DNA of 64,000 nucleotides from Nemertoderma westbladi (taxonomy: Eukaryota > Animalia > Xenacoelomorpha): the NCBI GenBank assembly GCA_032718475.1, contig JAUCBJ010005260.1, positions 1 through 64,000 on the forward strand. Direction: 5' to 3'. The notes beneath the pieces were generated by a model. It worked only from the letters and a program-made list of their open reading frames with translations, was not told the DNA's origin and searched no databases. Position numbers and translations under genes: made by a program. Shown one piece after another: positions 1 through 51,061 of this stretch (positions are counted from its first letter, which is position 1; the number at the start of each line of letters is the position of its first letter).

Positions 1-2065
1 GGTCCGTTACAGGTCGCATTATTTCGGCGAGTCTGTTGGTGCTGATCGCTTCCGCAGGTTGCAACGTGGGTTTCTGTTGGGGTGTTTCTCGTGGAGGATT
101 ATCAATATAGGGGTTCGTCGATCGTTCCTCCCGTTTGTAATCCGCTGCCGCTGCCGCTCCAGTACGGAATATTTCCCGTTCCGTCGACTCCGAGTCACTG
201 GATGAATCGCTGTCGTCCGGATAAGGTGGTTGGCGGGTTCGCGTCCGGCGTATTATTCTTGGTCGAGTTCGTCGTGGTCTGGGATCTACGGCTCCTCGTT
301 GTTCGGTAGGCTCGCAAGCCTTCCACGAAGTCGTAGGTCTCGTTAAACATTGGGTGAGAGGTCTAGTAAAAACATCTGAGTTAAGGTCTACTGTAGGTTT
401 ATAAATGACTGGGTTCGCGCAGCACGTCACAGGTTTAACTTGCAATGGTTTACTCACCTGTTTTACTGTCATAAACGCAGGTTCGTCTCTCTCCACAAGT
501 AAACTACGACTTACTGTAGGTGGACTAGTTATGTTACCTGCTAAAATTGGCGATGAAGTCGCCCTAGGTTGCGGTATTTCCGTCACAACAAACCTGCTAC
601 CTTGCGTCGGGCGCACAGGCGTTATTTCCTTAGGTTTCGTAACAAAGACCGGTTTTATCGGAGTCGTGGGTTTGAGCATAGGAATAACTTGGGGAAAACG
701 TTTACAGTAATCCTCGACGAACTCCTCTCCTCGATCTATCGCTCCCACGCTTCCTTCCTCGATCCGCTTCTGTATTCCGCGATATCGAGCTTCCATACGA
801 TCCAGGGCAGACAAGTCGTGTCCAGTTCGCGATCTCATAGATCTATCTCTCGCGTCGAGTTCGAGGTCCGCTTGCGCGTTCGCTGTCTCGCGCGATCTAC
901 GATTCAATTCGAACTGTAGTTGCATCTCCCTTTCGCGTCGATCTGCGTCCTGTTGTTGTGCCGCTAATTCCGCTTCCTGTATAGCTAATCGAGCGTTTAT
1001 TTGCCGCGCCTCCAACTTGGCACGAACGTCGGATGCTGCTTTCTGCCGTGCTAAGTCCTCCTCCAGTCTGCGCATTTCTGATGCTTCGAATTCAGCTTGC
1101 GCCTTGAGTTGTGCAATTCTTGCCTCGTCTTCTCTACGTTGTTTCTCTCCTTCGATGGCGATCTGTGCCATCTGGTGTCGCGCTTCTTCCTCGGCGACTT
1201 GTTGTCGGCGTGCAACCTCCTGTTGTTGTCGAGTAATTCCAGACGCTGTTCTACTAACGTCGCCAACGTTGCCAACGTCGCTCCGTACGCTAACGAACGA
1301 TCTATCCAGTGGTGGATGTTGGTAGGCTCGCGAGCCTTCCGTAGTGAGAACTTCCGTCGTCCCTCGCGGTTCGACTTCCGGTTCGTCGATCGGTACGCCG
1401 CATCTACGAAGAAAATTGGTCAGCGTTTCCAACCTTCCGTCCAGGCAGTAGAGTTCTTCTTCCTCTTCGGGTTGTAACAACGCGTCCGAAACTGACTCAC
1501 CTAGCAGTTGGTCGAACTGCTCCTGTTGAGCCAAGCTTATTACCGACTTAAACTGAATAAGGCTTTCTCTCGCACTTACCAATTTATCTACTATCTTTAC
1601 CTGAGTAAAGTTGTCGCCACGCAACTCTGCAAGTTCGTGCAAACCTTTAAGTTTATCTACGGAGGCATGTACCCTACTTTCTATCCTTACCTGTAAGGTG
1701 TAGAACTCGTATCTCGACATCGGGGCGGTTAACTCGCGTAAAACGCGAAAACCTTCTCCGAGGTTCCGAGTAATCTGGGCCATGTGTCCTCCTATACTTC
1801 TAATAACGTTCTCCTGGCTTCCAGTCGAACTTACCATGTCCGGTTCCCGCGATCTAGTCTGCGGGACGGTAAGGAAATCTTCGATTCTGCCGTCGCCACG
1901 CGTTGCGGTTTCCGGTATTTCCGTTCGGGGTACCGGCGACGCAAGCGGTGTGACATCGGTGGAATCTCGGGTTCTCCTTCTCGGTTCGTCTACTGTCGAT
2001 CTGTCCGGGTCGCACGAGTCATAGTCGGTAGGTGGGTATCTCGTCGAATGGGGTGTGTCACTCAT
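1..2065 (-). CDS. gag: Gag(-pol) N-terminal part of element C, 3'-partial
   Basis: ATG at 2065; MSDTPHSTRYPPTDYDSCD...DGRIEDFLTVPQ...LTAPMSRYEFYTLQVR...QLLGESVSDALLQPEEEEELY aligns with the start of ORF 21145. Translated by hand for the first ~700 nt only; absent from the ORF track, probably because there is no in-window stop. Confidence 0.8.
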   Translation of the reverse strand, partial: MSDTPHSTRYPPTDYDSCDPDRSTVDEPRRRTRDSTDVTPLASPVPRTEIPETATRGDGRIEDFLTVPQTRSREPDMVSSTGSQENVIRSIGGHMAQITRNLGEGFRVLRELTAPMSRYEFYTLQVRIESRVHASVDKLKGLHELAELRGDNFTQVKIVDKLVSARESLIQFKSVISLAQQEQFDQLLGESVSDALLQPEEEEELYCLDGRLETLTNFLRRCGVPIDEPEVEPRGTTEVLTTEGSRAYQHPPLDRSFVSVRSDVGNVGDVSRTASGITRQQQEVARRQQVAEEEARHQMAQIAIEGEKQRREDEARIAQLKAQAEFEASEMRRLEEDLARQKAASDVRAKLEARQINARLAIQEAELAAQQQDADRREREMQLQFELNRRSRETANAQADLELDARDRSMRSRTGHDLSALDRMEARYRGIQKRIEEGSVGAIDRGEEFVEDYCKRFPQVIPMLKPTTPIKPVFVTKPKEITPVRPTQGSRFVVTEIPQPRATSSPILAGNITSPPTVSRSLLVERDEPAFMTVKQVSKPLQVKPVTCCANPVIYKPTVDLNSDVFTRPLTQCLTRPTTSWKACEPTEQRGAVDPRPRRTRPRIIRRTRTRQPPYPDDSDSSSDSESTEREIFRTGAAAAADYKREERSTNPYIDNPPRETPQQKPTLQPAEAISTNRLAEIMRPVTD

Positions 2066-3008
2066 GTCTTATTATATACGTCAAGTACGGGTAATAAAAT
2101 GTCAAAGTGTCTGAATGTTGAAGTGTCAAACTTACCTAACCGGTACAAATAAATCAACAAGTCAGAATGTCGAAATGTCAAAATGTCGAAATGTACAAAT
2201 GTCAAACTTACCTTGATATATATATATATCATATATATACCCTAACCGGTACAAATAAACTAACAAGGTATATAATAAAATAAGTAGTAATCTAGCCTAC
2301 CGGCTAAATTTGTACGAATAAGTGAGATAACGGTATACGTTAACAAAATATAGATCAACAAGTATAAACAATAGGCCAAACAGCAACGTCTAAAGGGAAA
2401 ATATGTACCAACAACACTACTAATAGACAGTGAAACCCACAAATTTTGAGTACTACTGTGCTTTCTTAAGTTTGAACGACGCGAGTCGTAAAACTTACGT
2501 TCCTTTGATCTTCCAGTCGTACAAATTCCCAAATACAAACCGGACGTGGGTCTTTCCGTTTTTCGGCGGCGCGGACGAATTTATTGTCTCCCAAACTTTG
2601 CGAAAAGCGGTCTAATCCTCGAAGCGGTCCAGAAATGAGTCCTTGAGTCCTGAAAAGGTCGAAGGTGAGAGTTTTACTTCTACGCTTACGAAAAATCTTC
2701 CTAGGTACCGATACAAATTGGTCTTTAAACCCTATGTACCTTTTCAAGTACCGAAAAGTAACACCGCACACACACGGCGTAAAACAAAGTGCTACAAACT
2801 AACTGTTAGCTAGTCAAAGATTAAATACGAAAGTACTAGCTACCCTAAAAGCCTACTGAAGCAGGGGACGTTCTAAATTACTAAATTTACTAACCTTAAT
2901 TTTTAAATATCTCCTACTTTCAATAGCTAACAATTCTAAACTAAAGGAAATAATACTATACACTATGATAGAAGCACTATATACTAATTTATATAAAATA
3001 CTTCCTAC

Positions 3009-5214
3009 TGTAAGGGTCCAGTAGTATACCGCTTACCAGATCCTAGTAACGATGTATCTTACTATGAGACTCTAGTAATGTATACGGGCTTGTACAGTAT
3101 CTGACAACAAATCCCAGTCCAGGATATCTAAACAAACAGATACAGTACACAAACGACTACTGGCGAGGAACAGAGCCTTGTATCTATTCTATGTACGTGA
3201 GCGGGTCGAATGCCTACGTACTAGACAGAAGGATACCTGTCCTCTAACCGGTGAGGCAGATGTACAGTTACAGTAACAGACCAAACTCACGGGAAAACAA
3301 TCCCCGCGCAGCGAATCCTAACTATCACTGACAGTCCTAAATACAGTAACTTGCCGCGGTGTGATTTATATGGTTTATATACGAACTAGTGGGTTAACAG
3401 ACCTAGCGTAACAACACTGACAGTCCTAAATCAGTCGAAAAAAATACAATAACAATACCGTAACAATACCGTTGTCCAGACAAACAACAGTTTAATAACG
3501 AAAGTGAAATACTCCTTATCTTGCCGCAACTAAATCAGATCCTAATTTTACAAATACAGACAATTTCCACCTAAAGTAATGTATAGTACGCTATAGCTAG
3601 TAGAACTTTAAGGGCAATATGTTTTAGGGCGTGTGTGTGTGGGTGTGTTACAAATAAAACAATTTCGTGTAATTCCTTTTACTAGGTTTTAGTGATTTTC
3701 TGACTAAAATGATACCGTGCGCTAGCTACTAAAATAAACTAGTCGCGTTTGTAGAACTTTATACTCACGAATGACGTCAAAGCTCTCTCCTTCCTATCCA
3801 CAACCCAATGGGCAACCACAGTGTTAGTAACTACACCCGTGATCGGCACTAATACCAGATTCTGGTTGTAAGATAAGAATAGGGGTTAATCGCTACCGTA
3901 CGTTAGCTGATCTGGTATACTAATTTAATTCTAGAACTTTGTTGCTGCGGTAGTTAGCAGCAATACCTATCAGTACGTGGCAAGGCGCGGTAGGATATTA
4001 ATAAACCTCCCTAGGCCAAGCAGTGTGCCGGTAGCAGAAATGCTCCTTGCCTGATCAAATAGCTAACTCCAGACAAGGGGGGGGGGGGTACTAATGTACG
4101 TTCTACAAAGCGAACCGGTACCAAACAGTCAGTGCTATGAATCACTAAATTATGGAACGTATGCTGTCCGTACCTAATATGTACTCGCGTACTGACGAAT
4201 GGCAATAGTTCTCACCTGTAGGAAGTACAGGTTAACCCAGGGGTTCGTAGGACTGACAAAGGGGGGGGGGGTTGTCTGGGTATAATTATTTGATCCTAAA
4301 TTTGCGGCGTCCAGTACGATGTCACGCTTACCCTGATCTATAGGTCTTACGGCGGGCAAGGGCGTCGAACAAAGTCTTACCTTCTCACAAAGCGGGCGCT
4401 GCATAGCAAGTGGAGTATTTCGAAGGGGCAAAGGGGGTGCGCGGTCAATCCAATGTGGGCGCTAGCGTGTTGTGGACATCCCTTCCCTGCGTTGCTTACG
4501 GCCTAACGATCTAGGCTGCCATCTCCCTGGTGTTCGGCTGTCCCGAAGTCGGACCAAAAGAAAACATGTCAGGAAATTGCAGTATATTTACAGTTTTACA
4601 AAGAATTATCAAACGAAGTTTCAACAAGAAACCGAATAAACTAATTTTAAAATAATATCAGGGTGGTTTACAAGGGAAGGGAAGTGATAACCGAAGGCAA
4701 ACCGGCCTTTTTATACTAGAAATTGCACATGGAAACTAAACAGAATTTTCCACAGCTTCACCATTGAGCAATGAAGTGCTTCGTGCTCTATGATTGGCCC
4801 AGCTCATCGTTCAACGCAGTCCGGCCCTTACACTAAATCTGGGACATGGAATCCTAACAGAATTTTCCACTGCCTCACATTTGAGCAATAAGATAATTTA
4901 TGCCCTATGATTGGCCTGGCTCATTATTCGCTACGCTGTACGCTTCTCATTGGCCTACCAATTAGCACCACACGAAAATAAATGGCCCCAAAATACAAAT
5001 TTCCCGACTGGGATTCGAACTCGTAACCTACGTAATGTAACCAACGCCTTAACCATCTGACCACTACGCCACGAGAGTACCTAAGGGTTTTATGTGTACA
5101 AATATGAATAGGCATATTACATTACTGTAACTTAATCAAAATACGTCGGATTTTCAAAAGTTTTTACGTTAAAGTTAAACTACAAATGCTACCTTATAGT
5201 GAAATAATTCATCA
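3009..5214 (-). repeat. Predicted 5' LTR of element C (~2.2 kb, TG...CA)
   Basis: Second LTR is outside the window. The end is inferred from ...CCCTTACA followed by GTAGGAAGTA, which is complementary to an LTR-internal 10-mer as in A and B, at a position homologous to the B LTR end. Confidence 0.55.
4990..5070 (-). ncRNA. tRNA-derived Pol III unit in LTR of C (not a functional tRNA)
   Basis: A-box TGGTCAGATGG, B-box GAGTTCGAATCC, downstream TTTT; homologous to the unit in B LTRs; no clean acceptor stem. Confidence 0.6.
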
Positions 5215-7790
5215 ATCTGCATGATTACTTTCTACAGTAGTTGTCGAAATACCAATGGGTGTAATTTTGGTTAGGGTCACCATAGCCACAGATGTTACAT
5301 TCGGCTTAGAGGGATTTATTAATATACGGGGAACAATATTTGAAGCCGTAAGAGGGGTGTTTATTGGTCTGAAAAAATCACTATCAGAGTCAGTTCTAAG
5401 ATCTTTAGTATTTTTAACGGAATTAGCATGATGTTGAGGCGACAGTTCTGGTAGACGATGACGTTCAGCCCGTTCCAAACGTCTTCCGCTTCTAGAGGTT
5501 CGAGATTTAACCGACGATTTATCGAACTCATCGGAGGATGTATAGCAACTAACTTCCTTGGTCTACCCTTGGGTACTTGGTCTACCCTACTTCCTTGGGC
5601 TACGCTTCTCTTCCAACTGGGAATCTGACAGTTGTTTTTCCAGCGATTTAATCTCCTCCACTATATTCTCTTGCTGCTTTTAATCTGCATTCTCTTTTGC
5701 TGAGCCTGAAACTGGATTTCACGTTCCTCTGCTTCCAGGTTCTGTTCAAGTTGATGTTCCTCCGCTTCCAGTTTATGTTTATGTTCCTCCGCTTCCGCTT
5801 CCTGTTTGCATTTTTGTTCCTCTGCTTCCCATTTGCGTTTTTGTTTCTCTGCTTCCAGTTTGTGTTTGCATTCCTCAGCTTCATGTTCGCATTGCAAGCG
5901 TCCGTCCTCTCCCTGGTCTTGTAATTGTTTCAATTTATTTTTATTTTTCTCTAGATCCATCAATAATCTCCACTGATGTTCCATCTCCCGTTGGATATCG
6001 ATATCCTTTAGGAGCCTTATAGTCTTGGGGCTGGATGGAGGGTGGCCATGAAGTCTTCTTATTAGTTCTTCTTCACCTACTTGTTTTATATAACCTCCGA
6101 GGTGTTTACAGATTGCGTTTTCTTGTACCTTTTGAGTCTCGGGTTCAGTCTGTGTGTACCCTTCGACATCTCGGGTATCAATTTGGGATGGATGGATGGA
6201 ATCCAGAACCTCAGGGTGAGGGGGTTCGCCTTGGAAGGAATGGCAGGCGCGTGCCTATTGAGCTAATTTTATTATGTTGTTGTTAGCTGCAGTTTCTATT
6301 ACTGCGGCTCCATTCCTGATGGCAGACTGATGGAAAGGCTGATAGAATTATCCTGATGCGGATTATTCTCTCATTTATGTCGTAAAAGAGAGACGGAAGA
6401 TGATCGGTATTTGGATCCCGTAAGGTAGTTTCAAAATTGGCTATTTGCTTAGCAAAGCCAGTTTGAAATCCCCTTAGGGTCTTCCCCACCTTACTAAGGT
6501 CGGTGGGATCGGCCGGTGCCTTTAATGCTCTCAATTCATCAGGGGTGGCAGAATGCAAGGGGAAAAACTTATCCAAAGATGGATAGTTGTAGTATCGCAA
6601 TACTGATTGTTGCATTTCTGGGACTGACATGGACAGTATTTGGACCTTAGTCCCTTTCTCAGAGGCCCAGTATTGGTCAATGACCTTTAGCAGGCTGATT
6701 AATAAACCTGGGGAAGGGGCCATGAGTGGGTCCATTCCCGGTGGCAGGCTTAAACCTGTGGCTGTATCGACTTCCGTCCGGTTTAAGTCGGAGGTCGCAG
6801 CCACTTGCGGTCGCTCAGATTGTAATTCGAGGCCAGTAGTGGGTTGGTTTGTTCTGGTGACTGTGGGTGGTTGATTTAATTTTGACGGCATAATGGGGTT
6901 TCCTGCTTGATTCGAACTGGAATATTCTGGCTCGGGTAATTCTCTAGTCGGAGATTTGTCTGGGTCGGAATGAGCTGGTATCGCAGTCACGTCAATCGCT
7001 GTCAATCACGTCAATCAGGTGCAATCGCTGTGGGAATTGTCTGAGGCGCTCTTGTTGATATTTGAACGATAAGACATTTTGTTAGATTTAATTTTGGAGA
7101 AATTTATTTTATATTAACCCTTTAAATAATTAGGCCTCCTTATGTTATGTTTATTATTGTTGTTTATTATAACGATATTAAGATGTTACAAATAATTATT
7201 ACAATGCCCAAATAAATAGCACGGAATTAAATTAAATTGATTCGGTCTACAATTTAATTACCAGTAAGCGATTAGTATAAAGCCGGTAATTTATTTGTAA
7301 AAATATTCCATGATAAATATTCAAATTCACCACTTCACCACTTGGAGGATACTATTCCGCTCTTATCACTACAAGCAATACTAATTACCAATAGAGTAAT
7401 GAATTACCTCTTATTGGGTTCTGTGTAAGACAGCCCAACACCCAACAACAGGAGAAGGCTGTATCTGCAGGGTAGTTAACTAAGCTGTAGAATCTATGCA
7501 GTAAGCAACCTTCCTTGTAAGGCGCAAAATCAGTAGGATGGGCAGAGGGTATGTAAGCTGTACAATGTTTTCCTATGGAGGGTAATACAGCCTACCTGAT
7601 TGCAGCAGCCAACTGAGTGGGGGTAATAAGCCTAAGCTGTAGTCAATGGTTACACAGAGGTAGGACAAGTCATGTGACACAATATTGCTTGCAGAGACAA
7701 CAAATAATTCCTCTCAAGTAATATATTGGTTTTGTAATATTACGCTGTCAGAGGTCCAAGTTGTAAATAATGAGTCTGAGGGTGAATACT
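5215..7790 (-). mobile_element. Decayed BEL-related element D, copy 1 (gag-like remnant)
   Basis: Near-identical to 45709-48126. ORF 6283-7005 contains LFYDINERIIRIRIILSAF, similar to A gag LLYQVRERVLRIRLILSAF. Followed by coiled-coil E/K/Q repeat fragments with frameshifts. Confidence 0.7.
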
Positions 7791-8004
7791 ACTACTACTA
7801 GGTCGAGCGAACTCGGACAGTGGAAATGAGATCCTTCCAGGCTTCCCGATTCTCCATAGTTGTCGCAATTTCGTTTCTCCCAAGTTCAGTGTCCCTTTCA
7901 AGTTGATCTATATATGTTATGGCCGGTCGCCCACGACTACGCTCTCCATGAGTTGGTTGCCAGAGAAGTAGATCTGGTATGATCTCGTCTTTACTTCGCC
8001 AGCA
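7788..8004 (-). mobile_element. 3' fragment of RTE-like LINE with (TAG)n tail
   Basis: Minus strand reads WRSKDEIIPDLLLWQPTHGERSRGRPAITYIDQLERDT...MENREAWK*, the typical RTE-type C-terminus, followed by TAG repeats. Confidence 0.75.
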
Positions 8005-8649
8005 TAAATAAAGCTAAAAATATGCCGCATAAATCTCCGGCCCCGAGTCACGTAATAAATCGAATGAACAAATTAAAAATAATTTAACTTTATGTAGTTT
8101 AAGAATTCGCTATCTCTATAAGCTCCAGTCGCGACAGCTACCCAAGGGTAGGGGTGGGCGCTACTCCTTGCTGCCTGCTTTCCCCCTGCTGCTAGCCTTT
8201 ACTAGCTATGTTCTCCCTCCGAGGTGGTTTGACCTCTCACCTCTCTCTGTGGCTTTAGGGCTTGTGCCCCCCCCCCCCCCCTCTCAAAGTTGGTTATGAG
8301 GCGAGATTATTATTGGTAATCTCGTATCGCCAACTATATTGGTAAAATGCCACTGGTCCCATTTTCGAGTGGATAATGCAATGGAATTGAATCCACTTAC
8401 AAGTGGCACTTATTCAAATTTTGAAAAAGTACCATGCCCTAATTTTGGTGTTCCAATAATGATGTACCACTAAGACTTGAGGCTTCAATATTACTTTCAA
8501 TGGACTCAGCGGTCCAGATAACTTATAAAAATGTGTTGAAATGAAAACCTTGTGGTATTTTCTGATTATCATAATTTTGAAAATTTGAAGTAAGCCTACA
8601 TGCCACGCCCTAATTGTGGTGCACCAAAAATGTTGTACCAATAAGAATT

Positions 8650-9720
8650 GAGAAATGGCTCACCGCACTATGTCGTTCAACATAGAGTGACGTGCCATCC
8701 TCCCAGCGCTTCTCTGACATGACAGACCATGGAGGCCGTCTGATCGTACGTTAGTGGTTCTGCACCAGGAGCACCTGTATGGTTCTGTTACCTTGCAACT
8801 GAGGCATGGGTAGTAGCTAAAACTCGGAACTGGGTGTCAGTGAGTTTCAGTCCCAATGAACTGATAGGAATGGCTTCGAGCCAGCAACTAGAGACTGGAT
8901 CATCAACCACATTGAGGCGGGCAATCCCAGGTGCGTTGTGGTGGTGGCCCGAAGAGCCACATGGTTTGCATCATGCAGTGGCTTCATCCATGCATGCTGT
9001 CTCACTGCGTCTGGGTCTGTTAGAGTTTGGGTTATGGTTGGGAGGGTGTCCTTCCACTCCTCATGGGCGTGGGGAAATAGAGGGTTGAGGACCCGATGGT
9101 TCATGGAGGCAGCCCGAGAGAGCAGTGCACGCAGCAGCTGAGGTCGAATAGGCAGAAGGTGCTAGCTGCAATGCGGAGCTCAACCCGAGTCCACCCATCC
9201 GTGCTGGGAGGCTCACCTGAGTCCAAGCCGAGTTCATGATCACTGAGTTGGCAATCTCCTGGAGGGCGTCACGTTGATTTTGGTCATATTCCTCCAGGAG
9301 TTCCGGGTGTTGGAAACACGGAGTGGCACAGAGAAAGTAGGTGAGCTGGGGGATGGCAAAGGAATTGCGGAGGAGAATGAACACATGGTGGGAGTCAAGG
9401 AGGGGCAACTGGTTGGCAAGAATGGCGAAGTCCCCTGCCTTCTCCCAAAGGCAGGATACGGTGGCAGTGCCCCCAATGGGAGCACCAAGCATCGTTAGGT
9501 TCTCTAGTGGGAGAACCTGAATTCCCGCACAGACCTCGTCAAATGTGGCATGGATATGCTCACGGGACTCGTTGGACTTGGCTCCTAGGAATATTTGTTC
9601 GCTTTTCGCTGGGTTTATTGTGAGTCCGCACTTTCTTCCCTCCTTGGTCATGGTTTGAAAATCCTCCAGACAAACTAAGTAGTCACCAGCGAAGTTCATG
9701 TCTTCTGGCGTCTTCCGGGG
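8650..9720 (-). pseudogene. Degenerate CRE-like (RLE-type) non-LTR retrotransposon, RT C-terminus
   Basis: GLTINPAKSE, LGAPIG, LLRNSFAIP and AWTQVSLPARMGGLGL motifs, broken by frameshifts. Confidence 0.7.
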
Positions 9721-10211
9721 TGTCTAGTGGACTATCCTGTAACCATTGATGTGGGGCGTGAGGGATCAAGTTTTCCACCTGCCCCCGCGTTTCAGTGTTG
9801 GAATACAGCGGTGGCAGAGCAGAAGGAGTTTGAACCACAACTCGACGCAGGTGGGATTGTCTGTGATGATGAGTCTTGGAGAGGACTTCAGAGAGGATGT
9901 CCGCGAGGTTTAACCGCGCTGCCCCAGCTGCTTCACGCGGGAGTTTTGGAGCAGCTTCAGCACGTCCTCCACTGAGTAGGTCGTCGGGCCAGAAGGTGGT
10001 CGATGTTGGGTGGGAGTGGAGTTGGTGTTGTTGACATTATAACAAATTATAATTATTGATAATATAAAACTGTTAGATATTAGTATACAATACTGTAATC
10101 TTTTTATTTATCTATTAAGTTCTAGATAGTTATATTAGTTATAAAGTGTATAATATAGCAGATACATAATTGTCTGACAAATAAATCATATGTAAGCATC
10201 ATATCTAGTTG

Positions 10212-10789
10212 ATGTATTCAACAATGGGATATTGTCATACCAGGAGGTCCATCTGTGCTCTTTTCATTGCGGTAAACATTAACGCTAGTTACAGTATAAC
10301 ATGTTATAATGAAGTTAGAGTAAATTTTACTTCTACTAATAAGGATTTAAAACAAGAGATGCTTGGCAAATTGGAAAATCTGCGAAACAGCAATCAAGGA
10401 GTATCTGACTTCATTGGGTTCACTACATCTTGGCATGAGAAAGGAATTCGTCATCATTGCGAAGAATGCGGTGAAGCTTTATATCGAAGTATCGGTTTTC
10501 ATGAAGGTAGTGGTGATGAGATCATGATTGATCTATCTGGTGAGAGATGTATTAATAACGGAAGTAGTAACTTGGAAGAACAGTTTTGCTTGGCTCTTGA
10601 TGAAAAGAGTTGCCGACTCCTTGAGGAAAAATTTCGGCAAGACATCACCCTCTCTGGGGATAGTGTCATAGATCACGATCAGGTTCGTACTTTTCGTCAG
10701 TTAAATTCTCTAAGGGAACATATGCTATTCGGGTTATCGATCACTTACGAATCTTGTCAGACGATGTGCTGTGCTGGTGTCTGTCCCCG
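10212..10789 (+). pseudogene. Host gene, 5' part: secreted Cys-rich protein interrupted by element A
   Basis: Signal-peptide-like SICALFIAVNINASYS, then ITCY...CEECG...CCAGVCP; ORF runs into LTR A at 10790. Confidence 0.75.
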
Positions 10790-11981
10790 TGTAAAAGCTT
10801 TTGTGGGATAACTGATTCGTTTGCCTTGTTGGCCAGTTCCCCCCCAGTCGCTAAGAATACTCTCAAAGTGATCTACAGCTAAAAATAGTGCAAGTTACCA
10901 GCTTATTGGCTGATTTGCTGTACGCAGGCATCTGGGCTCTGTTTAATCGGCCAACAAGCCTAGGGAGGTTGCGTCATAGCCTTGTTTTGTATCTCCCAAT
11001 AGAATTTGAGTTATCCTTGATGTTGACCTATCACAGAGTACTGAACTGAAAATTTCCTATCTCACTGCTCTTTCTCTGTGTTGAACGGGAGCTTCGTGGA
11101 ATAAGGGAGTTGGTATCCTCGTATAGAGCAGTAGTCACGAGTTTTTCAAAGCCACGAAAGAACGGCTTTTTAGTGTTTTGTGCTTTCTGCTTTTTAGCTC
11201 AACACTAGTAGGTTTAATCATAAGGACATATATCCTTTAACTGACCAAATGCACCTGATTACTGACTGATTGTCTTAACTCAAAACAAACTGGCACGATT
11301 GATCTGTCAATACTGTGTACTGCTATTTGTTGTCGGTTATTCATTATATTTGTTGATGAATTATTATATTGGAATAACGAGAAATAACCCCGACACCCAA
11401 TATTCTTGATATACCGAAGGTAAGAGAGAAAGGTTACCAATAACGATTGTGACTTATGTTAAAGTGGTTTGAAGTGAATCTAATGTTATTTGATAGACCC
11501 TACATGAGTCAGTCTGTGTTCCTTTTATATGTGACTAAAATCAGTAAAGATTGGCAGATTAGTGTGCAGTATTGTGCAGCATTGTGTGCGAGTGAGTCTG
11601 TTAAAGAAGCATTCCTAAAGAATGCGCCATATATGTGAATTATAATTAAGCCATATCGTTGTGAGTAGTTTAAGTCATAACTCTGTTTATGTAGATAAAG
11701 TGCCACGTCCTAAAGGAACTGTTAATATTCCCGAAGGTAAATAATATTGTCAGAGATTATATAATACTGTCAGTCGAATAATACATTAGGCTTACATAGC
11801 AATAAAATTAAACCGTCGAACCCAATCTCCCTGGAATATCCAGCGGGTGAATGGTCGCGCACGGATTGGTTTCGACTAGTGTAGTGAATCAAATACTTGT
11901 CATAGGCTAAAAAGCGATTTAATATCTAGAAGACATCTTAATTTGGCGGGTTAAACTGCCAAAGGTCTGAAAGCGCGAACA
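10790..11981 (+). repeat. 5' LTR of element A
   Basis: Matches 41828-43019; only two substitutions noticed by eye (about 11250 and 11832). Confidence 0.95.
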
Positions 11982-11993
11982 TTAAAGGATATA
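11982..11993 (+). promoter_or_regulatory. Non-tRNA primer-binding site of A (TTAAAGGATATA)
   Basis: Exact reverse complement of LTR-internal 11229-11240 (TATATCCTTTAA); starts at the first base after the LTR. Confidence 0.7.
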
Positions 11994-12299
11994 GCTTCTT
12001 TGTTGCAGTAAGCAATAAAGTTGAAAGTACCGGTCAACCGGTAAACCTGAACGGTACACCTGTAGGTCAGTAGGCCTAACTGTTCTAACCGGTACTGCCG
12101 TATAAGTACACTAGTATTATTCGATTTGATTGTTGTATACCGGTAGGCTGTTTAGGGGATTAGGGATTGATCACCCCTTATACCTTTATATGGTTTACTT
12201 ATTTCTGTCAAGTTTTATTTATTTGTAGGCCAGTATTGAACAGAAGGCGTGTAAGCCTGATCAGATTGTACAGACGATTTGTAGGCTGAGCTGTTGTCT

Positions 12300-12850
12300 G
12301 ATTGCTGTTAAGTCCGAACGAATTGCAGTGTGTGTAGATCACCTGTCCGATTAAGTACGATTAGGCAGTAGGGGCAGCGAACGCTGTAAGGTAAACCCCC
12401 AACTAAAGAATAAGTCGCACTACTGGGTTAGAGCGCATACTCCCTAATCATTTCGGAGTCTGCATGTCCTGTAGTTTATTTAGGCTTGAGAGTAGTCTGC
12501 CATCGTTTGGTCTGTACTTTGTTTGTGTAAGTCTGTACGGGTAGCGTATAATTTTATTTAAATAATTTGTAGGCTGGATAGTTGTCTGGCTGTTATTAGG
12601 TCTGAACGGATTGCCGCGTGTGTAGATCATCTGTCCGATTAAGTACGGTTAGGCAGTAGGGGCAGCGAACGCTGTAAGGTAAACCCCCAACTAAAGAATA
12701 AGTCGCACTACTGGGTTAGAGCGCATACTCCCTAATCATTTCGGAGTCTGCATATACCGTAGTTTGTTTAGGCTTGATAGTAGTCTGTCAGTGTTCGGTC
12801 TGTATTTTGTTTGAGTGGTTTGTACGCGTAGCGTAATATTTATTATTCAG
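12300..12850 (+). repeat. Tandem ~288-bp duplication in the 5' leader of A
   Basis: Core tgtgtagatc...ggagtctgca is nearly identical at 12331 and 12619. Confidence 0.9.
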
Positions 12851-14161
12851 AGTTTATGCGATTATCCGCAACATTCATTCCCCAAGTTTGTTCCTACAGT
12901 AATTGTGTTTGTTATACATATCGCTATAGTTAAATTAACCCCGGTACTACACGGGCTGCTCGGCGTAGGTAAAGACTGGTGATTTTGTGCATCGGTCACT
13001 CCAGCAGATGCCGTGGTTCTTTTAGCTGTTCAAGTATATTTAACTACTGATTATCTGTTGTACAAGTACTCGTACCTAATTTAGGGTTTAGTGTACAGTA
13101 CTTTCCGAAGTAATTATTGTAGACATTATATCTGTGTTGTAAAGTGGTTGATAGGCACATTCGATTAGCTTTATTAACTTCTAGGTAGGAACACTCCGTG
13201 ATACATAACGTAGAACCTATAGCGATACGGCTATAGGTCGTCAGGCGGTGGTATTTTCCTATCTAGACAACGCAGTGTATTTACTACTACTTATTATTTC
13301 AAATACCGTAGTACCCTGTCCGTTGTAATAACCGGTTTTCTAACCCTTTGTTAGGCTGGTTTGTAGACTTCTTGTAAAAATACCCTAAAAATTCGTATTT
13401 GTGTTTTTGTAAATTTTTGTGTTTATTTAGAGATTGTAATCTCAACCCGAATTGTATGTAATTTGTAGTATTAAGTAACTTAGGTAAATTAGAATTATTT
13501 GTTTTAGTGTCCTATACGTAACACTTCACTGAAAGCGCACCGCTTTGTGTAGTGATTACCCCAGAAATAATAACATTTATTTCAAACATAGACAAAACCC
13601 ATTAAAACGGGTATATATATTATAAATCAAATCTAACGATTTATAAATAGTAGGCCTACCATACAACCATTAGGTCTCAATATCAGTTGGATTACTGCTT
13701 AAATAACGGTAATAAAGTAAGTTAAAGTAACCAAGTAAACCTAAAGTAACAGAAATTCAATTATTTGAAATAATTGACATACCGGTATTTACGATAGGCC
13801 TATTATCTTTATTTCTATAAATCTAGGCTGAAATTATACCGGTACTTGTAATTAATTCTATTTCAGAATTATATATCCTACAAACTGTAAGCTGTATACC
13901 GGTATTCCAGATAGGCCTATTATATATTTGTATATATTTGTGCTAAAATTATACCGGTATTCGGAGATAAACCTAGTCTGTAATAATACTTATATAGTTA
14001 TATATACTATAAGTATACCGGTATTCTAATATATTATATATATATCACGCTACATTGAGTAGCAGTACCGGTAATTAATTATTAGGCTAGCGGTTAATAC
14101 TGAGTTACTAGACTTGCTCGGACTGTAATACAGCAGTAGACATTCAACGGTATACATAGTC

Positions 14162-17100
14162 ATGTCTGATACTAAGCAGAACCTGTCAGACAGTATATTA
14201 GATGTAACTATTTGCGACTCAGATAGAGACGCACAACCGTCTGGTCGTAAATCCAGTTCACCTCCCACTGTGAGGAAGGTCATCCCTCCAGTAGTAATAA
14301 CAGAACCTAGGCTAGTCCAACATCGTAGGTCTATCATAGGCACTCGAGCTCAGGTCAAGCGGGACCAACAAGCAACGGAACAGCAACAACCCGCTAGTCA
14401 AGAACTTATTCCTCAGCGGCCCAGCAGCTCCAGTAGTGAGGATACTGTAGAGCTGACACCCGAGCGCGGAGCGGAGATGACGGATGCGGTTTATACGGAT
14501 CCCCTTCTCATCCTTCCTGCAGCCGTACTCAGCGGGTTATTGATCGCGGTGGAAGAACACCAGATCGATTGGGCGAGGAGTCAACGATCCACTAGAGATA
14601 GTTATGCGGGGTACACGAGGGAAGAATTGAAGTCTATTGTCGAGTCGCAATGGAACTTCCCCGGACCCGGACTCCCGTTTGATTTATCAGAAGCTACCTG
14701 GGAAGACATACACCGGATGGGAGTAGCCAAGGAAACTATCGATCCAGCTGTATGGAAGAGGTCCGCAGCCGGATACGCACAGGGATTCTTCAGCTCTATG
14801 GAGCGAGTAGAAAGACAACTATTTAAACAACCTCAAGGACCTCAAGAGCAGGAACAGCTGCTTTATCAAGTTAGAGAAAGAGTTCTGCGAATTAGGCTAA
14901 TCTTATCCGCCTTTGAGGAGGCTTCTAAAAGAAGACAAGACACGTTGTTGCAAGTTGCCGTAAAGACTTGGCTTCAAAGGGTGAGACGCCAGGTTCAAGG
15001 AGCAGCTCAGTGGAAAGTTCAGTTGGAGGAGCGCTCAACACAAGGAGAATCGACAGACGCTACTTTCTCCCAAGTGGAAGGTGAAGCGACGGCAGAGAAA
15101 CCGCATAAGAAGGATGCCATTGATATCTATCTGTCAGACTATCAGCGTTTTGTGGGAGATGAAGAGTTGAGGAGAAGGCTAGAGGGACTTAGCCCTAATA
15201 GCGAAGGAGCCAAACTTGTGTTAGATGCGATTGATGTGGATAGGTTAGCGGCGAACCAAGCTAAATTCGATGAACAACTCCGCATCGCTAGAGAAAAGGA
15301 AGAACAAGTAAGGAAAAAGCGTATAGAAGACAGAAAGATAGCAGCAGTGGCAGAGGCAGAAAGAAAAGCGGCAGCGGCAGAGGCAAAAGCGGCAGCGGCA
15401 GCGGCAAAAGCGGCAGCAGTGGCGGAAGCAGAACGAAAAGTGGCGGAAGCAGAACGAAAAGCGGCAGCGGCAGAGGCAAAAGCGGCAGCAGCAGAGGCAA
15501 AAGCGGCAGCAGTGGCGGAAGTAGAACGAAAAGCGGCTGAAGAGATCATCCAACTGGAGTTGGAAAATCTTCAAGAGAAGCAAGACGACTTCAGTAAACA
15601 GTTAGCAGCTAGTAATATGCAGATGATGAGTCGATCTACTCCCAAAAGACAAGGGTATACCTCATCTGAGGAAGGTGATACCACCGACACTGAAGGCGGA
15701 AGAAATCGATCTCGCCTAAGCAGACGTAAAAGAACATTCCACCGGCAGAAATTGCCTGATTTGCCTCCAGCTGTTAGAAGGCAACTAAATAACACCAAAG
15801 TAGGTAGTACAGAACCCACAGACCAAATGATTACAATAGAAAGACTCCCTACTATAGTAGATGAGCCTGAAATAAGTAGGCCTGTTTTTGAAATCACCCC
15901 TTCGGTAATGGATACGCCTGTGCTCCCTGAAGCTACCTATAAATTCCCTCTGCATAGCACTAAGCTACCTGTGCCCCGTAGAACTGCCCAGGAGACAGTT
16001 CAGGTCCTGGACCCCGAGCGAAATATTCCAATTTTGTCGCCCGTTGTCCCTCGTCGGCCCGCTACGACGTTGGCGGATCCCGTTTCGGCGGTTGATTGGG
16101 TAGACGAGAGACGGCGGGGGATGGATATTCTCCTCGGAGAGATGAAGGAGAATCGGAGACTCTCCTCCCAACAGGTCCGAGAGTTGGAAGGGACTGTCCA
16201 ACATTTAAAGGGAACAGTGAGGGAAAGTAAGTTAGAGTTGCAAGAAGTGCAGCAAAATATCGCGCTAGAGCGCGATAAATTAGTAAATTTACAAAAGGGT
16301 ATACCACCACCCCCTGTAACAATGTGTCAACCCGTTAGGTCTGAAGTATCTCATGCGCAAGGTGTGGAGCCTACACGCATTTATACTGCTAGCGAAGTAG
16401 AGACTCCTATAGTGAACACTATTAAGGGTAATTATAGACCTGTTGATAATGATATTCCCTATAGAACTGATCATAATCCGAGAAATTTATATACCGATAA
16501 CTCGATATTAAATAGCACGATGGCCCAAGAAAGTTTTACGCGTCAAATGGCTAGAACCGAAGCCCGGCAAGCGGTAAAGGTTGGAGAGATCGTCAAGTTC
16601 AATGGAGATGAGATGAAATGGTTACCTTTTAATGAATATTACAAAGATAACATACAGAACTCTGTACTATCTAATGGAGAAAAACTTAGATACCTCATCG
16701 AGTGCTTGGAAGGATCTCCCAAGTTAATGGCGTTAAAGTTTATTGGACATCCAGACGGATTAAGACAAGTTTGGGATACACTAAACATCAGGTATGGTAA
16801 TAGGAATAATATCGCTGGGTACTTGTATGCCAAGTTAGTAGCGCCCCGAAAGTTTATTAGTAGCGGAATTATCGAGTTTTCCGATGAGATCCAGGAGATC
16901 TGCAGACAATTAGACTGGCTAGGTAAGTCTCATGAGTATCAGAACACTATGGTTATTAGAGCAGTGGCTTCTACTTTACCGAAAGGTGGAGTAGGTACAC
17001 GCTGGGATAAGAAAGTACTATATATGATGGAACAACAACGACGAGACCCTACCATGGCTGATCTCATGTCATTCTTGGATGGTGGTTATTAGAGCAGTGG

Positions 17101-18414
17101 CTTCTACTTTACCGAAAGGTGGAGTAGGTACACGCTGGGATAAGAAAGTACTATATATGATGGAACAACAACGACGAGACCCTACCATGGCTGATCTCAT
17201 GTCATTCCTAGATGGAGAAGTGAAATTGCAACTCCTCAAGCAGTCTCGAGAGAAGACACCGGAAAACAAGGTAAGTGAAAAACCAGTCTCTAGGAGAAAG
17301 GTAACACCAGTGTGTTATACAGACGACGGCGAAAGCCAGACTTCTCAAGGAGAAGATAGCGGGAAGGACACTAATAGATCTTATTATGTCAATAAAATGC
17401 CTAAAGATCAGGTAAGTAAATTCAAGTCTCGAACAAATGACAGGAGGGAACAGGTAAGAAAAACTCCTCCCACGTCTCCCAAGAGAATTCAGGTGAGAAA
17501 ACCCGAAGAAAAGGCAAGTGTACACAATGTGACTCAAAACAAGGTAAGTAACATCAAACCAAAATGTGCGCTGTGCGACGGGACCCACTATTTGAATAGG
17601 TGTGATGAATTTCTAAAGAAATCATTAACGGAGAGACGCGAAGTCATGTGGGATAAGCGGTTATGTTATAATTGCCTCAGACAAGGACACCAACGGCGAA
17701 CCTGTTTCTCTGACATAAGGTGTGCAAAGTGTGGTGCGAAACATCATATCTTGTTGCACGCTGAATTCGATCGAAATAGTCCGAATCAGGTAAGTGATTC
17801 CGAGCTACATGTCCAATTCAGTGATGTGAACGACACTGATCAATCTGAGATGGAAGGATTCTATACAGACGAGTTCTCTGACGAAAACGAATCCTGTTAC
17901 ATGATAAATACCGCAGTGTATCGAGCACTCACATATGAAAGAGATACAGAGAACGACTTTACTCTAACTACTTCTGAACGACAACCACCTTGGAAAGAGA
18001 CATCCTCCAATGTAGGGATCCGAGAGTTTCCTGTGGTGCAGGTAAGGGTTCACGGACCTAAGAGGAGTTATGTAGTGAACGCCCTCCTGGACTCCGGCAG
18101 CACAGGAACATTCATCGATAAAGAGTTAGCCGAAGATATATTTGCTGGACAACCCAAGTTCCAAACTAAGCTCAATATGTCGGGCATTATGCAAGTTTGG
18201 AAATCTACAATAACAGCTGATTATTATGTCGGAGCGTTGTCCACCCCCCAGGACGAATTAGGAGAACACAGCATAAGGTCAGTGAAAATGGTGGCTATAA
18301 AGAACTTCGCTACTACTCAAGCAGACCTTTATGATTGGGACGAGGATGAGAGCATCCAGCATCTTAACATACCTCGATTCCAGACTGATTATCCTGGAGT
18401 GCAAATACTCATCG
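14162..18414 (+). pseudogene. gag: Gag-protease of element A, frameshifted and interrupted
   Basis: ORFs 14162-17092 and 17079-18419: BEL capsid-like KFNGDEMKWLPF...KLRYLIECLEG, three BEL CCHC fingers, protease ALLDSGS. A 133-bp tandem duplication (16951/17084) shifts the frame; element B inserts at ILI|G. Confidence 0.9.
15340..15540 (+). repeat. Coding minisatellite (AEAERKAAAAEAK)n in gag A
   Basis: gcagcggcagaggcaaaa-type repeats. Confidence 0.85.
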
Positions 18415-20337
18415 TATAGAATTATATTCCCTAAATGCCGTGGATTTTCAAAATTTTTATTTTATTCGAATTAACTTTGTAAAGATTGCTTTGAGTTCTC
18501 ATTAGTATTGGTTCTATCTATTGTGTATCTATCGGTCAAGTGGTTCAGTAGCTCAGTTGGTAGAGCGTTGGAAATTATATGTGTAGTAGGTATCGAGTTC
18601 GAATCCTAGTAAGTGCGAATTATTTTTTGTGCAGAATTTCAACTCATTTAAATTAACCGCTACAAATTAATTGCATTTGTCTGTACCAATAAGGCTGTAG
18701 TTATTTGATTGTAACCAATGTCGTGCAAGTTATATATTAGCTGGACCAATAAGCTATCTTTAAAACCTTGTTAGAACCCATAGAACAATCGAGAATTTTC
18801 TCGATTGATTGCAGCACAAATTTAGTATATAAAGGTGCGATTCGTTCATTAGTTATCAATCTCTCAATCTTGTATTTCAATCTATACTTCTCAGATTTAT
18901 TCTGTCGTGCTTAGTTTATTCTCAGATTACATTGTATTATAATTGTATCTTCTGTAATAAAGTCAGAATATTCTCTCAGTTTTTCTGTTTTACTATGAAT
19001 TCACTACGGTGAACAAACTCGGGGACAGGATGGCCAGCTAGAGATCGGGCCGCAGCAATGAACGGGAACATCACGGGAATGTAGACGAGAGACAACCCGC
19101 AATACCATCTAGTGTTATTCGCCCATCGCCTGAAAGGTTAGACAGCGTTCGATCCTTGCTACCTAAGTATAAGACCAAAAGATCAAAAGGTAGACGCAGT
19201 GACACGCTGTAAGCCCAAAATTACATCATAGGGACTGTACTGTCTTGATTCAGGAAAAAACCGCAGTAGACCTTCATATTCCTACGGGGGGAGGGAAAGC
19301 GCAGGCAGATACTAGTACGCAGATAGGACGTAGGCACACCGGTACAAGGCATACACATTGGTTAGGGTGCAGCAAACTGTACGCTTAACTCTTGCTAAGT
19401 ACAGGTGTGTGTGCGACTATTTGCCGTACAACGGTGTCCAGTGCATTAGAACTTGTAGGCTAGGGGGGTTGCTGTGTTTTCACCTGAATTGGGATTGTAC
19501 CGTTCAGGCGGTAGGGCAGTTTACGCTAGGCGCAAAATAAATTGAGGCTATCAGGGATATACTAACATCTACCGTGTCCCCGCCAACGCCCTAATAGGAA
19601 GTTACCCGGACTACCTGGGTGACTAAAATTCTAGATAGGAGCCAGGATAGCTATTAGTACCCGTACGCCTACAGTAGTAAACTAACACATCTCTTCTTAG
19701 TATCAGGGACCTGGTACCTAAAATTGCCGAATTCTGGGCGTAGTATTAACCTTATGCCTGAATTTGAGTCCTGGAAATACGCAAGAGGGGAAGGAACCTT
19801 ACCATTCGTGAGTATTGGACCTACAAGTTACAAATTAGAATATTCGTAAAATGCACACCGTACCCAGTAATTATATATGTGAAGGAGCAAAACTGCTTTT
19901 GACCGTTCAGAATTAACACACGCGCGTTAGAAATTATTTACACCTCAAAATATATAAAATTAACTTAGTCCGTACTGTGCTTTGCCCGCTAGTTAGACAT
20001 CTCCAAATCTGCTCTGTACCTAGCTAGCGTCCTTTCGCCCAACCATATAAATCACACCGCGGCAAAGTATACGAGCCTCTTAGTCCGTCAGTGAGTCAGC
20101 CTGATTTTAGGATTCGCTGCGCGGGATTTTGTTTTATCGAAGTTTGTCCGCTCGTAGACTGTTTTCTGCCTCACCGGTTAAAAGAGATAGATACTGCAAT
20201 ATATTCGCTTACTTAGGGTTTACTGTTTTGGTGAGAAGGTCGGATTTATGATTTGATTTACAAACTTTACAGTAGGATATTGCAGGTATTGTTACCGTCT
20301 CTTCCGATAGTAGGAATAGGCGTATCTCTCCAATTTA
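18415..20337 (+). repeat. 5' LTR of element B (TA...TA termini)
   Basis: Matches 33034-34956; one substitution noticed (about 18980 T vs 33599 C). Confidence 0.93.
18542..18628 (+). ncRNA. tRNA-derived Pol III unit in 5' LTR of B
   Basis: A-box TAGCTCAGTTGG(TAGAGC) 18549-18560, B-box GAGTTCGAATCC 18595-18606, T6 at 18623-18628; acceptor and anticodon stems do not pair. Confidence 0.65.
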
Positions 20338-20348
20338 GTAGGAATATG
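20338..20348 (+). promoter_or_regulatory. Non-tRNA primer-binding site of B (GTAGGAATATG)
   Basis: Exact reverse complement of LTR-internal 19275-19285 (CATATTCCTAC); starts at the first base after the LTR. Confidence 0.7.
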
Positions 20349-21144
20349 TTTTACTGAACTACGGTTTGGTAGGACTAAAGTTATTTGAAAATTTTGTATT
20401 TTGAGGTAAAAAATTTATATTTGATTAGCTAAGTGCTAATTTTTTGAAATAAAATTTGATTTGAACCGCGTGTAAAATATTTTGGAATTGAATACCGGTG
20501 TTTAAAAAGGGTTTAAATACCATATTGTACCGGTACAAAATTTCGTAAAGTAAAACCTAACTCTTTTGTTTTTCAGGATTCAGAACTCATTTCTAGACTG
20601 TAACGGGAGCAAGACCGTGTTTAGCAAGTTTGGGAGATAGATAACCCAACAACTTTGGTTGGGAAAATCGCGTTTCGTCCGCAACGTTAAAAACGGAAAG
20701 GTTCACGTTCGGTTTGTATCTGGGAATCTGTTTTTCTGGAGAATTATTGGAGTGGGTGAGTTCGAAAAGTTGCATAAATAAGTTAGGCATTACCGTATTA
20801 GTTAAAATTATTGTGGGTTCCACTGTCTCAAGTATTTATGCATTCCGTATGATTTCTTTGTTCATTGCTGAATTAGTCCGTATTATTGTATTTAATTTAC
20901 CTTTTGATAACGCATATCGTTATCCGATTTATTTGTTATAAAATTGGCCGCTAGGCTAATTTTATTATATACTTATTCCGTGACATTTATTTGCTGTAAA
21001 ATTGGCCGTTTAGGCTAATTTTATCCATCTGCTATAAAATCGGCCGGTAGGCTAATTTTATAAGACTGTAATTAGTACCGTTTTATACAAATACGGTAAA
21101 CTCGATACTTTGACACTCACTTCACTTGACTTACAACTACCGAA

Positions 21145-24100
21145 ATGAGTGACAAACAAGACTATACGAAGAATACACAAACCGACTATGACTCATGTGA
21201 CGCGGATAAGTCAGCAGCGGAAGAACAACAGGGGAAGACTCGCGAGCCTACCGAACCTACACCGTGTGCGTCACCAGTACATCCAACGGGAGTACCGGAT
21301 GCCGTAGTACGAGGCGACGGCAGGACCGAGGACTTTCTAACTGTTCCGCAACCTAGATACAGGGAAACGGAAATGGTAAGTTCAGCAGGAAGCACAGAGA
21401 GCGTGGTTAGAAGCGTCGGAGGTTACATGGCGCATATAACCAGGAGTATTGGAGAAGACCAACGCATATTAGACGGGTTGACCGCTCCGATGTCTCGATT
21501 CGAGTTCTACACCCTCCAGGTTAGAGTACAGAGTAAAGTATATAAGTCCGTAGATAATCTAGTTGGCCTACAAGATCTAGCTAGACAGAGACAGGACATG
21601 GATACTCAACTTAGAATCCTCGAGAAACTAATGATCACTAGAGAGAAACTGATTCAGTTTAAGTCGACGATTAGACAGATACAACAGGAACAAGCGGACC
21701 AGTTGTTAGGTGAGTCAGTTTCGGACGAATTATTACAGCCCGAGGAAGAACAGGAACTGTACCGACTGGATGGACAATTGAAACACCTGACGGACCACTT
21801 ACGCATGTGCGGCGAAGACGTCGGCGATTTAGAAACCGTGCCGGAATACACGAGGGAAACTCCATTCGCACAAATCGAATCGGCACCGGGAATACTAAAT
21901 CAATCGCTGGTAAGTATTCGTAGCGAAATCTGCGAGGGAAGTATGGTCACGTCAGAAGTTGCTCGACAACAGCAACAGTTCTACAGACAGCAACACGAGA
22001 TGGAAGAACAAGCTCAACTTCTAATGATACAAACAGCAGTAGAGGAAGAGAAAATACGTGTTGCGAATGTAGCGAGAATCTCTCATCTGCAGGAACAAGC
22101 CGAACTCGAAGCGGCCGAAATGGAAAGGTTAGAGTTGGACATTGCCCAACAAGCGGCAGCGGCCGAGTTAGCGCAACGAACGGCAACAGCCGAGTTAGAG
22201 CGACAAACGGCAGCGGCAGCCGCAGCGGCAGAGTTAGAGCGACAGACGGCAGCGGCCGAGTTAGAGCGACAAACGGCTGCGGCAGAGTTAGAGCGACAAA
22301 CGGCTGCGGCAGAGTTAGAGCGACAAAGATTAGTTTCGGAAGCCAGAGTCGAGATGAAGACACGGCAAATAAAAGCCCAACAAGCGATACGACAAGCAGA
22401 GTTCGAGGCGCAACAACAACAAACGGAACAACGAGAAAAGGAAGTTAAACTTCGTTTCGAACTTGAGAAAAGGGCGAGAGAATTAGCCGAAACTAAGGAA
22501 AATCTGGATCTTCTAGCCCGCGATCGATCGATGAGATCTCGTGACGGACATGATTTGGACCAGTTAGAGGTAAGACATCGCCAAATTCAGGAACGGAAGA
22601 AGGAAGGAAGCATAGGAGCACCCGGACGGGAACGACAATTAGTAAAGGACGTGTGTCAACGATTCCCACAGGTAACTCATATGTTTGCACCGGTTACGAC
22701 TAAGGAACCTGTTTCGATTGCGGGTAGTAGTGATATTTCTCCTATCCATGGTGCGACGGAACACAGGTTTGTTATTCCGAACGAGTTTATACCGCCAAGA
22801 GCAACGTCGTCGCCCATTCCGAAAGTCAAGGTAAGTAACCCACCGATTACAGATCGTAGTAGTTTATTAGTCAGACCTGCACTACTGACGACAAAACAGG
22901 TGAGTCCACCTTTGACACCTAAACCCGTTACGCACTACGATTACCCAATGACATTTCGGCCTACAAGGCCTTTGGATTCAAACGCGGTCGTCCGACCACC
23001 ATTCAATCAGTTTACGTCGCAATCTACGACTTCGAGGAAGACTTGTGAGCCTACCGAACAATGGAGAACAGTGGATACGCGACCGGTTCAGTTTACGTCG
23101 CAATCTACGACTTCGAGGAAGACTTGTGAGCCTACCGAACAACGAAGAACAGTGGACGATGTTCCGAAACGAGCCGTTAGAATTCGAACGACGCAACGGA
23201 CGCGAGCACGTCGACCACCATATCCAGATGATAGTAGTACTTCGAGCGAATCGGATTACCCGAAACGCGAGGTATTTAGAACAGGGGCGGCCGATGAATA
23301 TAAACGCGAGCGTTCAGACAACTCCTTTGCAGACAATCCTCCACAGAATACACCAACACAGAAGGCGTTACAACCAACGGACGCAATTAGTACACAACAG
23401 TTCGCCGACATTCTGCGACCAGTTGTCAACAAGTTGGCTCAGATTGAGGAGCGTCTGGAGGAAGTTCAAACCGATAGTTCGAGGAACACCGAATTCGAAC
23501 ACAATAGACACCCGAAGGCACCACAAAGACCGGTACCTTCAAACCCCACATCGTATCAGGGAAAAGCGCCTAGAAGGGAGAACATCAACCAGGTTACCAA
23601 CCAAGGACGCGAAACTCTGAACGTTGCAGAGGAGATAGCGAAATTCGCAGCCAGACAGGGATTGCCGGTACAACAACCACCGAAGTTTTCCGGTAGCTCA
23701 AAACACTGGCATACCTTCGTAGACTATATCGAATCCCAGATCGCCGTGTGCGCCTTTACATCACGGGAGAAGTTCAATTACCTGCTCCAAACGTTGTCAG
23801 GAGAACCTAAACGTTTGGCGGAGACTTTCGTTGGTGTACCGGACGCTTTCGAACTAGCGTACGATCGTTTGACTTCGATATACGGAGGTACAGTGAGTAT
23901 GGCCAGGTCAGTAATAGAGGAACTCTGTAAGGGAGGGGCTATCACTAAACCCGTCGACTTACTAAAACTGGCTGACGAGATTAAGAACGCTATCACTACC
24001 TTAAGATCAATTGGACAACTTGATTACGGGAATACCCCTACAGTTCTATTAAAGATAATAGGACGACTCCACCATCGACTTCGTCGGGGGTGGAGGAAGG

Positions 24101-32215: not shown

Positions 32216-32329
32216 AAGGGAGGGCAAGGGTGGACGGAAGACTCGTGGGCCTTTCTTATGATTTGTGATTTATTTTGAATTATATGTTTTATATTTAGAA
32301 AATTTAGTAAACTTATATTTTATATTTGT

Positions 32330-32800: not shown

Positions 32801-33033
32801 ATTTATATTGGTGAATTTAATTTAGATTTATATTGTACTTACTTAGTAAAGCCTTAAATACGTAAAGTTTGAATTTGTAATTATTTTTGTATCGAATCAT
32901 TACGTAGAAAGGAAGTATTGTTTGAAATTTAATTGTAAATATGTAAGTACGCCCTAAGTATTCTATAGTTTGATTGATTATTGGTGAAAACCGTATATTT
33001 TAAGCACGATAATATCCTGTTTTCATGGAGCGG

Positions 33034-51041: not shown

Positions 51042-51061
51042 ATCTCTTTCTTTCCCTTTAT

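Follow-up and report, generated by a model that had tools for sequence, protein, structure and literature searches.

A BEL/Pao retrotransposon of Nemertoderma westbladi with a putative self-primer in its own long terminal repeat

Organization of the locus

The window analysed here is a stretch of 64,000 nucleotides from Nemertoderma westbladi (contig JAUCBJ010005260.1, positions 1 to 64,000 of the forward strand). It contains three BEL/Pao elements with long terminal repeats (LTRs): A, B, which is nested in A, and C, which lies on the minus strand. The main features, including the primer-binding site (PBS) of each element, are as follows.

10790–43019, plus strand: element A, BEL/Pao, with B nested inside
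10790–11981 and 41828–43019, plus strand: LTRs of A, 1192 bp, 2 mismatches, TG...CA, duplication CCCCG
11229–11240, plus strand: 12-nt complement of A's own PBS
11982–11993, plus strand: PBS position of A, TTAAAGGATATA
18415–34956, plus strand: element B, BEL/Pao, a single 2908-codon frame plus a further frame rich in Cys/His
18415–20337 and 33034–34956, plus strand: LTRs of B, 1923 bp, 1 mismatch, TA...TA, duplication CATCG
19275–19285, plus strand: 11-nt complement of B's own PBS, CATATTCCTAC
20338–20348, plus strand: PBS position of B, GTAGGAATATG
2–2065, minus strand: gag of C, clipped by the window edge
2999–3008, minus strand: PBS position of C, sense GTAGGAAGTA, without a TGG start
3009–5214, minus strand: 5' LTR of C, 2206 bp, TG...CA
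5215–5219, plus strand: ATCTG in the flank, the target-site duplication predicted for C, with the partner copy outside the window

The polyprotein of B carries the BEL/Pao domains DUF1759, Peptidase_A17, integrase and DUF5641 (PF03564, PF05380, PF17921, which scored below the cut-off, and PF18701), and the best matches of its reverse transcriptase (RT) region bear the same families. At least 120 relatives of this region were found at 37–43% identity, and those named to species are all animal. The gag of C shares 46% identity with the N-terminal part of the B polyprotein, and the LTRs of the two elements can also be aligned; the pol of C lies to the left of the window, beyond its edge. TG...CA ends and a 5-bp duplication are both present in A, and TG...CA ends are supported for C. 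B has the duplication but TA...TA termini, though it is young (1 mismatch) and its 5-bp duplication is clean.

No RT region was found in A, whose frame past B passes directly from protease-like to RNase H-like sequence. A has an additional 773-codon frame with no Pfam match, and a 133-bp tandem duplication at 16950–17215 interrupts its gag frame. An extra frame follows pol in both A (39803–41749) and B (30554–32215); the two are 26% identical, match no Pfam family and contain several Cys-x2-Cys-x4-His-x4-Cys-like motifs.

Elsewhere in the window, fragments of RT and RNase H from a different element type lie at 49032–53859, and an AT-rich block with a TBP-like frame (PF00352) occupies 54952–62735. 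The frames of this block hold what we take to be B-family DNA polymerase-like motifs, which had no Pfam match, and the block is possibly a Polinton-like or viral insertion. Element C sits in a repeat at 5213–7793, a second copy of which (45707–48126) is found 40 kb away with 93–98% identity.

LTR ends of element C

Public contigs from four studies were mapped on the region of C; one of them (X1) is possibly where the window itself came from, which leaves three further studies. At the 5' end of the LTR, flank contigs begin at 5215, which places the LTR start at 5214. Depth drops beyond bin 5124–5247, and the start aligns with that of the B LTR. At the 3' end, depth rises between bins 2892–3015 and 3016–3139 in all four runs. 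Among the matches listed, loose contig ends at 3016 have TGAAAA in common next to the LTR and diverge beyond it (X1, 10 contigs, agreement 0.62; X2, 7 contigs, 0.56; X4, 4 contigs, 0.67). These belong to a sister subfamily that is one base shorter, with its CA at the equivalent of 3009–3010 and many different flanks. In addition, record 14 of X2 and record 23 of X6, a contig set that may derive from RNA, both terminate at 3009, and record 17 of X4 turns into unlike sequence two bases past 3009. The original prediction had placed the LTR end of C at a canonical CA at 3009, to be checked in other copies of C. In the contigs of the four studies these copies stop at 3009 or, directly beyond the corresponding CA, pass into flanks that differ from one another, in agreement with the prediction. 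An alternative end near 4565 was rejected, as X1–X3 show no depth step there; the TGGTCC motif associated with it, near 4555, falls within the LTR.

The X4 contigs are about ten times deeper over 4380–5247 than over 3016–4379; the front of the LTR alone may therefore be common to a related repeat. Minor contigs of X1 and X2 jump from 3012–3015 to 2952 with TAGG or GTAGG in between and a PBS-like hairpin at the joint; these contigs may be tandem variants or side products of reverse transcription.

Pairing between the PBS and the LTR

On the sense strand of C, GTAGGAAGTA follows immediately after ...CCCTTACA (plus strand, TACTTCCTAC at 2999–3008). Its complement is located inside the LTR.

4218–4227, minus strand: contiguous 10-nt complement of the PBS of C and candidate self-primer, with a G-U pair at 4228 as the 11th position

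Here the plus strand reads GTAGGAAGTA and the sense strand TACTTCCTAC. Both 10-mers were verified in place, so the exact complement that had been claimed is present. Complements of the PBS start at offset 0 in all three elements, with lengths of 12 nt in A, 11 nt in B and 10 nt in C, and a tRNA-type PBS (TGG) is absent from the first 8 nt past the LTR in each of them. No substitution at or above 1% was listed among the contigs for 2999–3008, which is not proof of sameness.

As long as the LTR end is left unfixed, the LTR and leader of C (3.1 kb) contain 12 ten-mer starts in inverted pairs, compared to a shuffle mean of 6.5. The 4218–4227 pair is the sole CA-anchored one in C, and 23% of 300 shuffles contain such a pair, so that the 10-nt match is weak when taken alone. 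Fixing the LTR end and permitting offsets 0–3, the observed length was reached in 28 of 3000 shuffles for C (10 nt), 2 of 3000 for B (11 nt) and 3 of 3000 for A (12 nt).

Relatives of the window elements

A metagenome scan yielded 78 loci, the best 78 of 574 confirmed stretches. A long-range direct repeat was present in 30 of the 78, and the LTR end was visible in both copies in 11, which form the relative set; four of these eleven LTR ends lack CA and are possibly miscalled. On the tree, B forms a long branch, and it shares at most 42% identity with the relatives. With a spacer of 0–3, seven of the eleven have a PBS complement of 11–15 nt. Extending the spacer to 0–5, after two cases had been spotted by eye, gave nine of eleven with 10–15 nt, versus 2 of 178 cross pairs; no PBS match was found in the remaining two.

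Four of the nine positive relatives have a contiguous complement, and in five it is built across GT-AG introns of 76–186 nt, with 6–7 nt in the second exon. Five of the eleven relatives have intron-built complements of at least 11 nt, joined over a GT-AG intron in the LTR. In C this arrangement would yield 9 nt, and A and B need no intron. Contiguous and spliced primers do not cluster on the tree. Two loci that are 75% alike (L031 and L037) were counted as one lineage. Five further loci show an LTR start alone. Two of them are positive (L007, 0 of 60 shuffles; L069, 1 of 60), one duplicates L022 and two are negative. The paired stretch begins 0–4 nt from the LTR end and stops at 10–15 nt in all 12 positive elements. 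Its letters differ among A, B and the nine relatives, and both sides change together across families. Judged from these sequences, the PBS/LTR pairing is a family-wide trait.

The 21-nt LTR motif common to B and C matched no stretch in the metagenome contigs, and scans of viral contigs returned zero loci.

Covariation and a second site in C

A second candidate site lies upstream of the 10-mer in the LTR of C.

4247–4270, minus strand: poly-C tract and CAG, resembling a 3' splice site, and then TCCTAC, which makes up the final 6 nt of the primer
4586–4594, minus strand: donor-like ACT/GTAAAT, which joined to 4252 would give a 9-nt complement across a predicted 339-nt intron

The two TCCTAC sites of C are 29 nt apart, the upstream one being 4252–4247. 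Anchor distances are 62/56 nt for the primer of B, 50/54 nt for the upstream site of C and 79/25 nt for the 10-mer at 4218–4227. Global alignment likewise pairs the B primer with the upstream site, and local alignments paired it with one site each in two settings and with neither in three. The CAG/TCCTAC site is thus likely the positional homologue of the B primer, as judged by alignment and spacing.

These comparisons bear on the proposal that the flanks of the shared core had changed in a matched, base-for-base manner between B and C and that the pairing is under selection. The matched change of both sides holds across families. Between B and C themselves, the anchors and the global alignment favour the upstream site, and the flank changes first named may therefore compare non-homologous sites. 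As for selection, either route to matched sides points to use as a primer, but templated copying would yield matched changes without it. In Tf1, reverse transcription transfers the primer sequence to the PBS, of which the cDNA retains a reverse-transcribed copy, according to the portion of PMC11042837 consulted, so matched changes need not mean selection on each pair.

Proposed priming mechanism and alternative explanations

We propose that C is a BEL/Pao LTR retrotransposon that probably uses a stretch of its own LTR, independently of tRNA, as the primer of reverse transcription. A, B and most of the sampled relatives appear to be self-primed too. In Tf1-type priming, an RNase H step sets the primer free. 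By analogy with Tf1, the LTR-derived RNA would fold onto the PBS. Cleavage by the element's RNase H immediately 3' of the duplex would leave a 3'-OH, from which RT would copy the remainder of the LTR. During plus-strand synthesis the primer sequence would then be returned to the PBS, which would thereby take on any change that the primer had acquired. A scan of 2900–21000 against Rfam gave three matches, all at chance level; thus no known ribozyme accounts for the cut.

Where the primer begins was approached by folding and by motif scans.

4680–4715, minus strand: TATA box and initiator-like sequence of C, common to B (18826–18860), about 490 nt upstream of the complement in C

The sharp limit of the match at 10–15 nt in the 12 positive elements suggests that the 5' end of the primer lies there, as an RNA start or a processed end. 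Folded from the first base of the primer, the mean pair probability is 0.95 for A, 0.92 for B and 0.15 for C; upon the addition of 60 upstream bases, the predicted pairing of A and C drops to 0.00. The TATA box of B and C lies about 450–490 nt upstream of the primer, and the motif scan found no TATA at -31 from the primer in A, B or C. Among the nine relatives, it is at -31 in one and at -124 and -133 in two. The first of these (L010:6626–6745), in which a splice-spanning 12-nt primer starts exactly 31 nt past the TATA box, is the clearest Tf1-like case of the set. The primer would have to lie upstream of the poly(A) site, as LTR sequence would otherwise be lost; an internal primer would still be workable with the poly(A) site downstream of it. 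The next poly(A) signal is found 36–228 nt past the primer start in seven of the nine relatives, and two have no downstream signal. An AATAAA occurs upstream of the primer in B.

The positions of these signals bear on a reading in which the 3' end of the RNA, formed at the poly(A) site, folds back onto the PBS and primes. The match of A ends in AA and its PBS begins with TT, which speaks for this reading, but neither AATAAA nor ATTAAA lies a short way ahead of the primer in any of the three window elements, and the downstream signals of the relatives are likewise at odds with it; we regard this as the least credible of the explanations. Hardly more probable is that the match in C arose by chance or as a by-product of short repeats. 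The C LTR does contain three TCCTAC and the B LTR two additional GTAGGA, and such pairs are common while the LTR end is unfixed. The LTR end was confirmed independently of the pairing, however, and the pattern recurs in A and B as well as in nine of the eleven relatives. It is also rather unlikely that the pairing is a conserved leader structure, serving packaging, dimerization or a translation switch that hides the LTR-adjacent site, while a host RNA or protein primes. The distance of the match from the TATA box common to B and C would suit such a structure, as would additional flanking stems, of 7 bp with one G-U in B and of 5 bp up to the LTR end in C. Against it stand the constant 0–4 nt spacing from the LTR end and the missing tRNA-type PBS; a single host primer is disallowed by the variation of the paired sequence between families.

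A further explanation, which we consider unlikely though less so than the leader structure, keeps self-priming and shifts the location of the primer. The working or ancestral primer of C would be built by splicing at CAG/TCCTAC, the 10-mer 29 nt downstream would be a later duplicate or replacement, and B would have lost the acceptor and retained an unspliced version at the same place. The C LTR has just two strong acceptor-like sites, and this is one of them. What comes after it corresponds precisely to the final 6 nt of the primer, a phase that fits the five spliced relatives, and the anchors place the B primer there. Moreover, joining to a donor at LTR position 624 would yield 9 nt of exact complement, or 15 pairs with a 2-nt bulge. 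This length is inside the control range, as 13 of 178 reach at least 9, and a donor 78 nt upstream, which would give an intron size typical of the relatives, contributes no pairing. No joint skipping the intron stretch is present among the 15 of 24 contig joints listed. A broader possibility, which we advance tentatively, is that one wide BEL/Pao branch primes itself from internal LTR RNA and that its families switch between splice-built and contiguous primers, because reverse transcription would rewrite the PBS from whichever primer was used. C would then be in the middle of a switch, with CAG/TCCTAC decaying and a contiguous site newly arisen at a distance of 29 nt.

The LTRs of B and C also contain a tRNA-like stretch.

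5000–5077, minus strand (C), and about 18540–18610 and 33159–33229, plus strand (B): tRNA-like A-box/B-box stretch near the LTR start, with a T run behind it

It was rejected as a primer source, since it holds no complement of the PBS. ARAGORN did not call it at the default score, and a relaxed run gave 42 sites, which is noise. Besides the B and C LTRs, it has no occurrence in the window.

Comparison with known self-priming systems

Tf1 and Tf2 of S. pombe, Tj1 of S. japonicus and the Tf1/sushi and Tcn1 groups, all Ty3/gypsy, have a short PBS complementary to their own LTR RNA and no tRNA PBS, according to the parts of the reports consulted (PMC4600332, PMC5341516, PMC6317226). The self-primer of Tf2 lies in R, base-pairs with the PBS and is released through a cut made by RT, as described in the consulted portion of PMC5341516; the RNase H step of Tf1-type priming is treated in the consulted parts of PMC5341516 and PMC4600332. 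Similar to the PBS of about 11 nt that matches an LTR stretch in Tf1/sushi elements, A, B and C have matches of 10–12 nt, and 9 of 11 relatives share the arrangement. Unlike Tf1/sushi elements, which encode a Ty3/gypsy chromovirus polyprotein, the window elements are BEL/Pao; they would work like this group without being members of it. Their LTRs measure 1.2–2.2 kb, the primer lies 0.75–1.2 kb from the PBS, and in five relatives its complement spans an intron. In Tf1/sushi elements, the RNA begins with the primer. For the elements studied here, the motif scan placed a TATA box at -31 in one of nine relatives and in none of A, B and C.

In Ty1/copia, a superfamily that is mostly tRNA-primed, self-priming has been predicted for the plant TAR lineage (Houba, Osr-1) from sequence alone, according to the consulted portion of PMC6317226. 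Our proposal is likewise a prediction from sequence, in another superfamily and another kingdom. The tRNA-primed BEL/Pao element Achilles belongs to the same superfamily and has TG...CA LTRs. Such elements have a PBS that begins with TGG and is complementary to a tRNA 3' end, which is not the case in A, B and C. No report of BEL/Pao self-priming was found in a literature search that covered titles and the beginnings of abstracts, mainly of open-access papers. In the main text consulted, PMC3118150 and PMC6238403 contain neither 'primer' nor 'PBS', and PMC554778 mentions PCR primers only.

In practice, the pairing called the LTR end of C correctly and gave candidate ends in two more loci. If our proposal is true, it would explain the missing PBS in tRNA-based annotation of such elements, and splice-spanning primers would link host splicing to the onset of reverse transcription. 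Self-priming has been described for Tf1-type Ty3/gypsy elements and predicted for one plant copia lineage; BEL/Pao would then be the third, animal-wide superfamily, and tRNA-free priming would arise or persist widely.
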